A stretch of DNA of 64,000 bases from Eledone cirrhosa (lineage: Eukaryota). This document shows positions 36,836 through 61,243 of this stretch, piece by piece. A program made the translations under genes and the position numbers. Each line of letters begins with the position of its first letter. Within the stretch, counting starts at the first letter, position 1. The stretch covers positions 115,754,001 to 115,818,000 of the forward strand of contig OZ024742.1 in the NCBI GenBank assembly GCA_964016885.1. The letters are read 5' to 3'. The notes beneath the pieces were generated by a model, which worked only from the letters and a program-made list of their open reading frames with translations, ran no database searches and had not been told where the DNA came from.

Positions 36836-37046
36836 TTACTACTTCTACTACTACTACTAATACTACTACTACTACTACTACTACCACTACTACTATAACT
36901 ACTACTGCTGCTGCTGCTGTTGCTGCTGCTGCTCTGCTAATACTGATACTACTACTACTACTACTACTACTACTACTACTACTACTACTACTACTACTAA
37001 TAATAATAATAATAATAATAATAATAATAATAATAATAATAATAAT
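36836..37046. repeat. Compound (ACT)n(GCT)n(ACT)n(AAT)n microsatellite flanking the E1 3' end
   Basis: Direct sequence. Confidence 0.97.
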
Positions 37047-37289
37047 TATGCTTTATTTATTAACCACAAGGGTTTAGATAAAGTTGACATTAAGGACAGT
37101 ACATGACAATACAGGGCGGTACAAATGGGCATTTCTGTGTGTAAAAAAAACAGAGGTGTAACAAATAAAATAACAATGAAAAATTCCCCAATAGTGGGGA
37201 GACTTCCGATGGACATTTGTGGAGAAAGCCCATTAAAGGGCCACAGTGACCCTGACCAGCAGGGCATGTGCCCTCTCCAAGTTTTCGAC

Positions 37290-40200
37290 CTTTAATTTAC
37301 AGACACATACTCAGATTCATACTTGCTTCTCTCATCCATCTCTCAACAAAATGCTGGGAAGAGAGCACTTCCCTCTGCACCCTGATTTTCCTTTTCAAAT
37401 GAAATTTGAAAATGTTAATCAGGGCATCACAGGAGAGGTAAGTGCTCGTTTTCAGCCCTTTCAAACGGGTCCAGCATACTATCTATTTCGCCATGGCCAC
37501 CAGACAGATAAAAACTGGCTGCCATTCCCGGCTAAAGGAAGAGGGTGGGGAAATCCTCACGATGGACTCAGCTGATAGCTGGATCCGTCCTACACGTGAC
37601 AGCAGGTGTTCGACATAAACCCACAAGTCAGCAATGATCGGACACTGGACGAGTGCGTGCAGGACGGTTTCGTAACCCTGCGCGCATTTCGGAAATGCAA
37701 GGCTGACGGCACCTCCATGCCTGTAGAGTTTATCCCGAACTGGCAAAGCTCCCCGGTAGCACTGCCAGGTCAGGGATTTCTGGAAGTTGTCCATAGGCCC
37801 CGGCCTGAAAGTCCTTCCGAAGAGATTGGCTAGTTGATTTTCGTCGACGCCTAGAGTTTCTCCAAGTACGTCGTCGCTCTTCCCTCCACTAATGCTCTAT
37901 AGAACGCCAAGCTGGAGTTTCCACCGATCACATTGCCCGATTGGTCGGATGCTGTGAGCGCCTGAAGACATTCCAGTCTCCAAGCGCTCCCTCTCGGTCT
38001 TCGCTTGACCCAGAACTGCAGCTCCATCAAGGAGACTAGCTGGGGAAAGACGTGTCTAGAAAAAGGCGACCACACCTGATCACCGTCGAGGAAGAGGTGG
38101 AGATGTCGTAGCCTGAGCGCGTGTCTGCGCATCATCAGCCACGGCATGCCCAGCTCTCTACGTGGGGTGTGTTGACAGCAGAGGACCGCCTGACCATCGG
38201 AGCGCGTCCCTTCCACAAAAAGCGAATAAGTAAACGCTCCAGCGCAGTCAGGCGGGGCTGCTTAGGATAAGGTACGACGGTAAGGCGGTAGTAGATGACG
38301 GACGCGATGTACGCGTTAGCCACCTCCGCTCGACCTTTCAGGGATAGCTTCCTCTCGGCCCATTTCTGGGTGAGAGAAGCCACCCTGCACGACAGCTCGT
38401 CCCAGTTTTTGTCCATCTGGAGGTCCGGACCGAACCAGACCCCTAGCAATTTAACCGGTCCGTCCGTCAAGCGCCCGACAACGTTGTTGGACGGCATGGA
38501 TCTGCCTCTCCAGGTGCCGACCTGCAGGCCCACTGACTTTTCCTGGTTGATCATTGCTCCTGTCACCGCTTCGTATTCTCTTAGTGTAGTGCCGATCGCC
38601 TCGATGTGTTTGGCGTTCGACACCACTACGGTGACATCGTCCGCATATGCTGACACGGATCTTCCGCATCCTAGTTCGCGCGGGACCCTGCTCAACTTCT
38701 CCAGTTTGTGCAGTAATAGCTTGAGAGTCAATACGTACAAGAGGTACGAGAGTGGACATCCTTGACGGACCGAGCGCATGAATTTGAACGGTTCCGAAAG
38801 GTAACCGTTCACTCTCACCACAGAGCAGATGTCGCTGTGCATGGCAGCGATCCAGCCTTTGAAGACGGGCCCAAAGCCAGCCGCCCACAGGACTGCCGCT
38901 AGTTAACGATGGTCAACCCTATCGAAAGCTTTCGACTGATCTAAATTGATCAAGGACTCGCCCGTGCCAGGTTCTCTAGCTACCCTCTCTACGATGTATC
39001 GCATGAGGTGGAGGTTGTCGTGGATGGATCTGTCGGGAATGGGGCACGTCTGCGCCTCTCCCACCAGACCACAAACGCAAGCACCAACCTCTTTGCTAGC
39101 ACCTTGCCCAAAATCTTGAACTCTGTGTTTAGCAGAGTTATGGGCCTGAAATTATCTATGTTATCCCCCTTGTTCGGATACATTCTCAGCAGCGCCACAG
39201 CTCCTCGGCTCACAATGCTGGGAATTCTCCCGTTCTCTTGCCAGTTGCAGTAGACGTCCGCCAAGAGGCCTCCGACAAGTCTGGCATCTGTACGTGAAGT
39301 TCATAGGGCAGAACATCCAAACCTGTCGATTTACCCCTTTGGCAGCCAGTCATCGCCTCCCGTACTTCAGCGGCTGTTATCGGCTTTTCGCAACACTCTG
39401 CCTCAGCGGCCGAGAGCCGCGGCAGTCCGTCGAGGTAGACACTAAAGTCCATCCCTCGATCCGGCCCGCCGCTGGCCCCGAACAGCTGTGCGAAGTGTCG
39501 CTGAAAAGCTTCACACATTTGCCCGGGATCGAGTAGAATGCGCCCGTCGTGGTCCGCCAAAGACGGATCGCGGTTTTGTTGCCACGACGCGCCTCCTCTA
39601 CTCGGACCCATTGAACGGCTTTCGTCCCCTCGTGTCTGAGAGCACGCACCCTAGCTCTGACAACGCAGCCTTCGTGCTTTGCATTGAAGAATTGGTAAAG
39701 GGCCAATTTCGCCACAAGTACGTCGGTCGCGTTGCGTTTGCTAGCGCCTCGACTAATTTTCTAACTAATTCTCCCTCTGCTCTATTTTTCGCTATTGCTA
39801 AAGCCTTACTAAAACTAATGGACTCTATTTTAATTGCTCTTTTCAGAGCAAACCACCACTTGTTGTTGATGATGGACCCCTCAACGGCCGCTTAACTAGT
39901 TCGCTAATCCCGTTTCTGTAGGCCTTGCGCACTGGTAAGGACGCGTTTAGCTTCCAGTAGGTCCTCGTCTAAGAAGTCTATCTAAATCAAGCACACATAT
40001 CACGAATTTGTGGTCCGTGTAGCTGACTATCTTGAATTGTTGACAGCCTTTGCTAGACCTATCTATTTCCATACAAAATACTCTATCTAGATATGATCTT
40101 GATGACCCTATGCAAATTGTCCAAGTCCACATTGGCACATTCGGGAAATCCAATCGGTACCTGTCAGACAGTTCAAAACGCTTGAGCAGGTTGGTGAGAC

Positions 40201-58865: not shown

Positions 58866-59529
58866 GTTGAAATGGAGTGGAAAAGATGGGAAGGACCACT
58901 TACCTTACTTCTCGTAGATGAAGGACGGTTTCTCCATCCCTTTTCACTTGATCGTCTGGTGAAGGTACCGTTGAATCGTCCCTTCGGCTGGTCGTCGGCT
59001 CTTCTATGAGGATGTCCAAATATACTCTCCGGTTGAGAGTCCCTCCTAGGTCTCTGAAATCACTATCTGCGTTGGGGAATTTCGCTTTAATGTGTGTGTG
59101 TTGTTTCTATGCTATTCTTACCAGTCTTATGTTCGTTGGTGTTTTCATTGGTGCTGGTATTATGTAGACGTGCTGTGAAATGTCTGTGTGTATTTATTGC
59201 CGTGCATTTGTTTTTCTTTGGGGTGGGGTGTGGTTCTACTAGTTTCTTGTCGTTGTTGTTGGGTGTGTGTGTTTTGTTGTTGTGTTGGTGCTTGTGGTGG
59301 TGGTGTTGAAGGTGTTGTTGTTTGCGGTGGGGTTGTCGCCGGTGGTGATGGTGGTGCTAGTGTGAGTGGTGATGGTGTTGGTGGTGTTGCTGCTGTAAGT
59401 CTCTTTGCAGTAGCCTTTACCCTTTTTTTCATTTCTTTCCTCCATTTTCGAAGGCGACGATGCGCTGCTTCTGCGTTTGTGCCTTCTTACAACCTTTTGC
59501 CATCCCTCTCCCACATCACACTTCATGTC

Positions 59530-60399
59530 CTATTCTGCGAGACCGGGGAGGGGCATCAGATCCACTCTTTCACTTGTTGTTGTCGGTGATGTTTGCAGTG
59601 GAGTCTCTGTTGCAGCTGCATTTGGTATTACTGTTGTTGTTGTTAATACTTCCACTGCTGCTGCTGTTCTTGATTTCCCTGGTGTGGGTATGGGTGCCAC
59701 GGACCTATCGTTCCCGGTTGTCGCTTGTCCTGTTGCTGGTAGCAGTGGAGCCGGTTTCGGAAGGAGGTGGGTTTTCTCCTTTCTCAGGGTCTTCACATTG
59801 CAGAAGGCCCTGAGGTGAGTCTTCGATCCACAGCGAAAGCATTTCGGACGTTTGCCCTCAATAATTATGGGCAGTTGAGTGCCGTTATCGAAGTCTATCA
59901 CATCCGGGATAGTTTCGATGCACTCCTGGTTGGTTTGGATTAACATCTCAATGGAGGTGCCGACCCAATCTTCTCTTACATTTTTCTGTACTTGCAGTAC
60001 AGTTGTTTTGTCCTCGATTCCGACGAGGACAGACGCGACCAGCAATGAATGGGCCATCCCTGGGTGGACGTGGGTCAGTTTGACCCTCACAATTTTTTGC
60101 CCGCAGTAGGAGAGCACCAACACCATTTCCTCGCTCCTTAGGGTCACTAAGGATTGAGCCTTTGCCTCCAGGGGTGTGGCAAAAAGCACGTCTACGGTGG
60201 CATATTTCTTGCCTCGGATGATATGTGTTTTCCGCTGCCACACAGACCCTAAGGCGTTTTGTATTTCAGCCTCTGTGGCTCTTTCAACCCTACGGGATTT
60301 TTTGCTTACTGTACGGTATGTGACCGTACAGTGCTGTTGGGTTTCGAAAAATGTTTCGGCTGCCTTGCAGATTGCTGGGTGTCCGGTTTTCGTCACCAT
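59530..60399 (-). pseudogene. E4 ORF1 core with CCHC zinc knuckle (full ORF1 extends ~58900-60750)
   Basis: IIIEGKRPKCFRCGSKTHLRAFC; homologous to the E1/E2 ORF1 core. Confidence 0.85.
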
Positions 60400-61243
60400 C
60401 TTCTTTGCTTCCTGTAATTCCTCATTTGTTATGAGGATGGTTTCCAGGTTCTTTGCGATACCTGCAAACGAAATTTGTTTTTCTTTGCTGTTGTTGTTGT
60501 TATTGTTGTTGTCGTCAGAGCTGCTGTTACTTTTGTTGTTGCTACTGGTACTACGACTACTGCCGCCGCCGTTGTTGCTGTGGTTGTTGCTGTTGTTGCT
60601 ACTGGCGATTCTGTTGTTGCTGCTAATGCTGTTGTTGTTTATGCTGCTGCTGATGCTGTTGCGGCTGCTACTGTTGATTTCCTTGTCACTGTTGCTGCTG
60701 CTGCTGTTATTATGGCTGCTACTGCATGACGTCAGACGAATGAAATGGGTTTCTCTATTTACCGCACATATTATTCGTCGTTGTTGTCGTCGTCGTGAAA
60801 TGTTCCTCGGTTTGCACGTGCTCGAGGAAACTATCAGAAACTATATTTTTCTTTTTCTTTACTGGCGTCGCTTGCGAAAGAGAAGGGAGGGAGAGATACA
60901 CATTTATAGAAGGGAGGGAGCGAGAGAATCTTCTCTCTGGTGTAGTGACGATTGAGGAAGAGAGGACGGAATGAGTGGGAGTGACTTGTGAAAATTCTCT
61001 TTTGTAGCCATGTTTTTTTTGGTTTAAAATACATATTGAGCACCAAACCCCAATAAGCGGTTATTTAAACCCGAAGGGCCAACTAACGGGCAGAAAGACC
61101 CCTCTCGCGAGAAGGAGGGTGTTTTTGTCTACAATCTAGTTGAAGTTTTAAACAATTTACAATTGGTATTGCGCTTAAAATTTACAATACCTTACAGAGC
61201 CGAGCCTCCGTCAACCATGGCATTCAATAATAATAATAATAAT

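Follow-up and report, generated by a model that had tools for sequence, protein, structure and literature searches.

What does it mean that four retrotransposon copies, set head to tail in two pairs, all begin and end in the same trinucleotide repeat? The question is raised by a 64,000-nucleotide stretch of the Eledone cirrhosa genome (contig OZ024742.1, positions 115,754,001 to 115,818,000), called the window below and numbered from its first letter. The four copies, E1 to E4, are long interspersed nuclear elements (LINEs) on the minus strand, in which fragments of an apurinic/apyrimidinic endonuclease-like domain (APE, PF03372), a reverse transcriptase (RT, PF00078) and a zinc finger (zf-RVT) are interrupted by stop codons and frameshifts. 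They belong to three families (A, B and C) and carry (ATT)n on the sense strand at both ends. An earlier, sequence-only reading had placed six (AAT)n tracts and four minus-strand elements here, positions that our coordinates bear out (Table 1), and had proposed a lineage that targets (AAT)n in a strand-specific manner. How APE-type retrotransposons choose a sequence target, and change it, is poorly understood, as the excerpted text of PMC3812793 states for microsatellite targets. In our analysis these elements are very probably L1-group LINEs that insert into (ATT)n in one orientation, with the APE endonuclease likely nicking the AAT strand and the 3' end of the RNA likely pairing with the primer.

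The genome (3.0 Gb, about 30 large contigs) was searched with 5' heads from which the tract had been omitted. This gave 727 candidates for family A, 464 for C and 774 for B, of which 40 were scored and 30 fetched for each. A 5' junction was called positive when at least 10 of the 12 upstream bases were ATT-periodic. ATT was found upstream of 30/30 full-length heads in A, 27/30 in C and 29/30 in B, in total 86/90, or 83/87 when the window's own three are left aside. A single head (1/90) scored as the opposite strand, AAT. Junctions mostly devoid of ATT, or a random orientation, which had been named beforehand as findings that would speak against targeting, were not encountered. The exception in family B (L071) has (CTT)n upstream of a full-length head, and the 3' junction of L193 consists of ATT followed by (CTT)n, indicating that the flanks follow the target. 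As background, forty evenly spaced 10-kb genome stretches (400 kb) were analysed. Here 0.155% of positions were ATT-periodic, and of the triplet tracts with at least five units 14 were AAT, compared with 51 ACC, 27 ATC and 18 ACT. Given this background rate, and since AAT is not the commonest triplet repeat, chance is excluded.

An internal RT query returned 66,742 candidates including related families, many with open frames of 1152-1204 amino acids. From 149 listed copies we picked 40, half by their long frames and half off the head of the list. ATT flanked these copies upstream in 39/40 cases, downstream in 37/40 and on both sides in 36/40. ATT came after the 3' end in 23/30 cases of one set and 28/30 of another, the seven misses of the first set nonetheless starting with ATT. 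Both the heads and the RT-picked copies exceed the share of flanks of one type (>20%) that is taken as target preference in PMC4494074.

Truncated copies decide whether the upstream repeat is target DNA or an element's tail, since a tract that lies at a random break cannot have come from the RNA. From the fetched loci a set of 116 single-segment insertions was drawn. Within families A, B and C, strict ATT was present upstream of all full-length copies (34/34) and of 18/34 5'-truncated copies; none of these copies, full-length or truncated, scored as AAT or ATCT. Under the same strict rule only 33 of 20,000 random positions scored. Target-site duplications could be read at imperfect tracts (15 bp at L105, 20 at L115, 9 at L134 and 18 at L201), so that 5' truncation, 5' inversion and short duplication, the marks of target-primed reverse transcription (TPRT), are all present. 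Upstream and downstream tracts had median lengths of 30 and 34.5 nt, respectively (Wilcoxon p 0.56). The proposal of a strand-specific (AAT)n-targeting lineage is thus upheld by the full-length heads, the truncated junctions and the fixed polarity.

Relatives at about 70% identity that end in (ATCT)n turned up in the random genome stretches. One such family, D, is young, has intact open reading frames (ORF1, 643 amino acids; ORF2, 1150 amino acids), stacks head to tail and has the polarity of A, B and C (e.g., L403, L401-L420, L308, L329 and L335); several more ATCT-tailed subfamilies are present. The last 25 nt of D are nearly identical to those of A, B and C, and the D endonuclease is 62% identical to that of A. 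(ATCT)n was found upstream of 8/8 full-length and 24/40 truncated D copies and ATT upstream of none (0), with duplications of 12-19 bp (L342, 16; L356, 19; L343, 12; L411, 12). Within the 116 insertions, targets are not crossed between the ATT families and D. In a tree of the C-terminal region (185 segments clustered to 23 rows), 31/31 ATCT-tailed segments fell into one clade (100/100), which includes 0/138 ATT-tailed segments. RT trees place D as sister to C (Shimodaira-Hasegawa-like approximate likelihood ratio test, SH-aLRT, 99) with A and B outside, which makes ATT the more parsimonious ancestral target. The switch would then have run from ATT to ATCT; the C-terminal tree does not settle that node. 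Young, housed in one genome, with intact ORF2s and nearly the same 3' end but different repeats, A and D form a natural pair for tests of target choice.

Read against established TPRT, the junctions suggest the following course. The APE endonuclease would place the first nick on the 5'-AATAAT-3' strand. At its 3' end the RNA would carry ...GAAA(A/T)C followed by a few AUU units, either acquired by read-through or encoded as a short tail, and this AUU end would pair with the freed primer and start reverse transcription. A second-strand cut 9-20 nt away would duplicate the target, so that the next copy could again land in tract on either flank. A short word, ATTAT(T), is likely the minimal site; long tracts would pack many such words closely together, and they often lie beside Dong-like elements and SINEs. 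The preference of the endonuclease and the pairing of RNA with primer probably each play a part, and their shares cannot be told apart from sequence.

It is conceivable, if rather unlikely, that the target is set mainly by pairing. A loose endonuclease would nick AT-rich DNA, only those nicks that pair with the tail would prime well, and the repeat at the RNA end, (AUU)n or (AUCU)n, rather than the enzyme would pick the microsatellite, which would explain the switch from ATT to ATCT. This is in line with the 3' junction phase (C, then ATT), which is constant even at the non-repeat sites L105, L128 and L193, with a predicted hairpin loop that is nearly alike in all families (TNRIG in A and B, TNRMG in C, SNRSG in D), and with the insertion at short ATTAT sites of a short interspersed nuclear element (SINE) that itself ends in ATTAT. 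However, the 3' flank of L134 opens with GTT, which matches its duplicated target and not an encoded tail, and the divergence of the D endonuclease from that of A makes ample protein change available. Furthermore, the endonuclease mainly sets target choice according to the excerpted text of Kojima 2015 (PMC4494074). We favor a nick directed to the AAT strand together with pairing of the RNA end.

Much less probable is that the elements make the tracts themselves, the 3' tract as a tail that is encoded or arises by read-through and the 5' tract as co-transcribed upstream repeat, with no real preference. The higher ATT rate of full-length over truncated copies would fit, as would the length of the tracts flanking young copies, which at a median of about 30 nt on each side exceeds the background mean (14 tracts totalling 285 bp). 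Yet ATT at truncated junctions lies about 300-fold above background, which already contradicts this explanation, and non-repeat bases occur within the duplications. Neither the (CTT)n upstream of L071 nor a long tract beside a Dong-like element without any A, B or C copy (L310) agrees with it.

Several points nevertheless weigh against microsatellite targeting as formulated here. The strict ATT score is failed by 16/34 truncated A, B and C junctions (3 in another element's tail, 3 5'-inversion rows, 4 short ATT-like sites and 6 with no clear ATT), and hence specificity is strong, not absolute. The higher rate at full-length than at truncated copies would allow part of the 5' ATT to have arrived on the RNA. 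No orthologous empty site was seen, and four sequencing runs gave no junction sequence. Pure tracts hide both nick position and duplication length, the loci are the best 40 scored of 429-3024 candidates and not a census, and choice by long open frame applies to 20/40 RT-picked copies.

Most sampled copies have no neighbour of the same lineage upstream, and ATT is present all the same. Where units are stacked, 13/17 compared units match other loci better than their own neighbour, and stacked neighbours are mostly independent insertions. On the earlier reading, each insertion would leave target on either side and let head-to-tail arrays grow. That arrays arise by local tandem duplication or assembly artefact is scarcely credible: at L405 two D units side by side, 99.87% identical and truncated at the same point, are a clear local duplication and 4/17 compared neighbours rank first against each other, but the mixed neighbours of the window (C beside A, B beside A) refute it as a general cause, and the better matches elsewhere and the ATT at solitary copies also speak against it.

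The intact ORF2 is a 1152-amino-acid open frame with matches to PF03372, PF00078 and PF13966, and ORF1 carries a CX2CX4HX4C motif. ORF1 followed by an ORF2 with N-terminal APE, RT and C-terminal zinc finger is the organization of the L1 group. The best solved relative of ORF2 is LINE-1 ORF2p (E 1e-53), and a structure model of the endonuclease (predicted local distance difference test, pLDDT, 83.9; predicted template modelling score, pTM, 0.86) has L1 endonucleases as top fold matches (template modelling score, TM, 0.78). The nearest named ORF2 relative is from Argonauta hians (73% identity). Young copies of A and B (L164 and L176) are 95.7% identical over 3765 nt of ORF2 and 3' untranslated region (UTR), and 97% in the endonuclease, whereas 5'UTR and ORF1 differ, the ORF1 core having about 50% amino-acid identity. 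Sequence comparison points to a module swap of 5'UTR and ORF1. The A/B breakpoint lies close to the ORF1 end. The C endonuclease is 71-75% identical to that of A. Since A and B have one ORF2, they are not independent tests of targeting; the claim that the pattern holds across divergent subfamilies stands for C (E2), and the independence of the others had been overstated. Most RT-picked copies are 97-99.9% identical to the reference copies, which marks A and B as young, and many have intact ORFs. In A, B and C a GTAAGT-like word followed by a pyrimidine run directly precedes the start of ORF2 (window positions ~40730, 46020 and 58905) and could be a splice-like signal at the ORF1/ORF2 boundary or chance. 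A crude descriptor of the hepatitis delta virus type found no convincing self-cleaving ribozyme at the precise 5' ends of eight heads, and the B head had no Rfam match near threshold. In the four sequencing runs the family was found at depth under a single other organism label and sparsely under two; the raw-read run had no family coverage over ORF2.

The (AAT)n tracts are shared with other elements. Upstream of the 90 heads lay antisense Dong/R4-like elements (35), same-strand members of the lineage (20), same-strand SINEs (10), a same-strand Dong-like piece (1) and unclassified DNA (24), and one or both sides of 38/40 RT-picked copies adjoined a recognised element. In the Dong-like elements the RT is nearest to R2 structures, (AAT)n lies at the 5' truncation points and 3' ends, and the C-terminus holds a restriction-like region that we take to be PD-(D/E)xK-like. 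At least two Dong/R4-like families, some of whose copies have long open frames, were observed in the same (AAT)n on the opposite strand (L165, L188, L196, L310). The SINE-like repeat, about 185 nt long and very abundant, had 74 matches in the 400 kb and occurs in the window also at 25152-25333 and 15297-15357. In 13 of the 34 copies whose 3' end is intact there were 10-20 bp duplications, 12 of these 13 starting at an ATTAT-like word. The likeness of its tail to the LINE tails is weak (2-13 of 500 shuffles reach as high a score) and best for D. The SINE is likely mobilised by these LINEs; Rfam gave nothing close to threshold for its head. Downstream of L168, L189, L197 and L210, the ATT tract is followed on the same strand by the start (APE N-terminus) of an RTE-like element, which may prefer these tracts too. 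A 16-nt word recurs in the heads of E5 (L434), a further relative in the window, and in those of the unrelated Dong-like copies that lie upstream of L190, L212 and L215; E5 and L215 agree at 16/16 positions, and A-D have looser versions. It may be an internal promoter element common to both clades.

From these data, it would seem largely to be mobile elements on the two strands that build and occupy the long (AAT)n tracts of this genome, a point of relevance to how cephalopod genomes grow and to the use of such loci as markers. We give about even chances to a broader picture, an octopod radiation of Tx1-like LINEs on AT-rich microsatellites, with a switch from ATT to ATCT in one genome that has left both enzymes intact, and with tracts shared strand by strand with unrelated Dong/R4 elements and a SINE, each class making and splitting the sites of the others.

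The layout of the window is given in Table 1. The sequence-only reading was right that the ends of four copies are bounded by ATT, but E3 is an internally deleted A copy. Its candidacy as a non-autonomous family was rejected, the fusion junction being found only in the window copy among 40 scored hits. Likewise, the two tandem pairs are present, but the second array goes on leftwards into SINEs and a fifth relative begins at 63045. The tract at 61226 indeed has no same-strand tail upstream, although it abuts a plus-strand Dong-like element. Such antisense co-occupants and the (ATCT)n sister family had been missed. Degenerate older fragments of the lineage were observed at 35061-36595 (+), 32195-32602 (+) and 28603-29651 (-). 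The first lies tail to tail with E1, is followed near 36830 by ATTATT and then (ACT)n, and is uninformative in its 3' region, which is single-copy. The fragment at 28.6 kb continues into RT-like sequence of a different kind.

Table 1. Repeat tracts and mobile elements between positions 36998 and 64000 of the window.
Feature	Positions	Strand	Details
(ATT)16 tract	36998..37046	-	E1 3' junction; runs on into (AGT)n
E1, family A	37047..42833	-	full-length; ORF1 (CCHC knuckle) and ORF2 (APE-RT-zf) both broken; 90.5% identity to young copy L164
(ATT)12 tract	42834..42869	-	E2 3' end to E1 5' end
E2, family C	42870..48192	-	both ends present, ORFs broken; two internal deletions, ~345 and ~175 nt; 91-93% identity to L213
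(ATT)7 tract	48193..48215	-	E2 5' junction; (AGT)5 and unclassified DNA before tract
Two co-oriented SINE-like copies	54442..54846	-	~185-215 nt repeat; leftward extension of second array; pair ends in (ATT)5, 54425-54439
(ATT)8 tract	54854..54879	-	E3 3' junction
E3, family A	54880..55542	-	5.2-kb internal deletion; A-type first ~590 nt fused to last ~70 nt
(ATT)8 tract	55543..55566	-	E4 3' end to E3 5' end
E4, family B	55567..61225	-	ORF2 and 3'UTR A-type, 5'UTR and ORF1 different; ORFs broken; ~270 nt internal deletion; young copies 88-93% identical
(ATT)6 tract	61226..61243	-	E4 5' junction, common to opposite-strand Dong-like element
Dong/R4-like element	61244..63042	+	5'-truncated; C-terminal restriction-like endonuclease; antisense to E4; 91% identity to another genomic copy
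E5, C-related	63045..64000	-	without 3' end; extends ~4.2 kb past window; (ATT)14 upstream of its head

Placement in the Tx1 clade is likely. ORF2 bit scores were 309-476 against U2- or 5S-flanked elements and 185 against human L1. In the RT tree, a 52-row group holds the lineage with the U2-/5S-flanked elements and a protein named 'Transposon TX1' (SH-aLRT 88, weak backbone), in trees that were built without named Kibi, Koshi, Keno, Dewa, Mutsu or vertebrate L1 rows. A group including the Oryzias protein P0112 attaches to the wider clade with SH-aLRT 96, next to long branches, and is a lead only. ORF2 proteins at about 50% RT identity (P0005, P0016, P0018, P0023 and relatives) form a large sister group of the octopod lineage. 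Metagenome relatives are nearly all 25-36% identical, with one at 42%, and none of the 21 inspected was ATT-flanked. Among metagenome Tx1-like elements, Rfam identified U2 small nuclear RNA flanks (L229, L236) and 5S rRNA at the 3' flank (L235, L240); U1-like and tRNA-like 5' flanks on contigs L222 and L243 were seen by eye and not confirmed by Rfam.

In Octopus, 13 recently active L1-Tx1 families with 421 insertions are described in PMC13282606, and L1-Tx1 repeats, annotated as abundant in Octopus, are also covered by PMC8967140; the excerpts of neither paper give a target preference. These annotations probably include the present families or their orthologues. The available text of PMC9115989 contains no mention of Tx1, and that of PMC3747384, PMC5786205 and PMC4640811 nothing on ATT or ATCT targets. 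No report of an ATT- or ATCT-targeting Tx1/L1 element was found in this literature; Repbase, Dfam and paper supplements, which lay outside the search, may list one.

Compared with known systems, the lineage is akin to human LINE-1 in its APE-RT architecture and endonuclease fold. Human LINE-1 likewise shows 5' truncation, 5' inversion, short duplications and 5'UTR/ORF1 module exchange. Unlike human LINE-1, the present insertions lack a poly(A) tail, and their site is ATTAT-like or ATCT-like, not T-rich. The Tx1 families Keno (U2) and those on 5S have RNA genes as targets and an endonuclease only 26-32% identical, and the octopod lineage does not nest within these families. Dong, of the R4 clade, is (TAA)n-specific in silkworm, mosquito and snail, as excerpted from PMC3812793, and Dong-R4 is abundant in Octopus (PMC13282606, in excerpt). 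Such elements share the microsatellite but belong to an unrelated clade and occupy the opposite tract strand; in place of their single ORF with a C-terminal restriction-like endonuclease, E1-E4 have an N-terminal APE. Closest in behaviour are Tx1 elements on microsatellites, for which TC, TTC, TTCC and TTTC targets are given in the excerpts of PMC4494074. Kibi on (TC)n, Koshi on (TTC)n and the crocodilian (TTCC)n/(TTTC)n families also combine an L1-group ORF1 with an APE-RT ORF2 and microsatellite insertion, and there, too, related families use related repeat units (PMC4494074, PMC3812793). The present families differ in their AT-rich (ATT)n and (ATCT)n targets, as opposed to pyrimidine tracts, and in a host that is not a vertebrate; neither (TC)n nor (TTC)n is their target, (CTT)n being found only at L071 (5') and L193 (3'). 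Tx1-type microsatellite targeting is thus already known, and the ATT and ATCT targets, together with an intact sister pair, extend that system.

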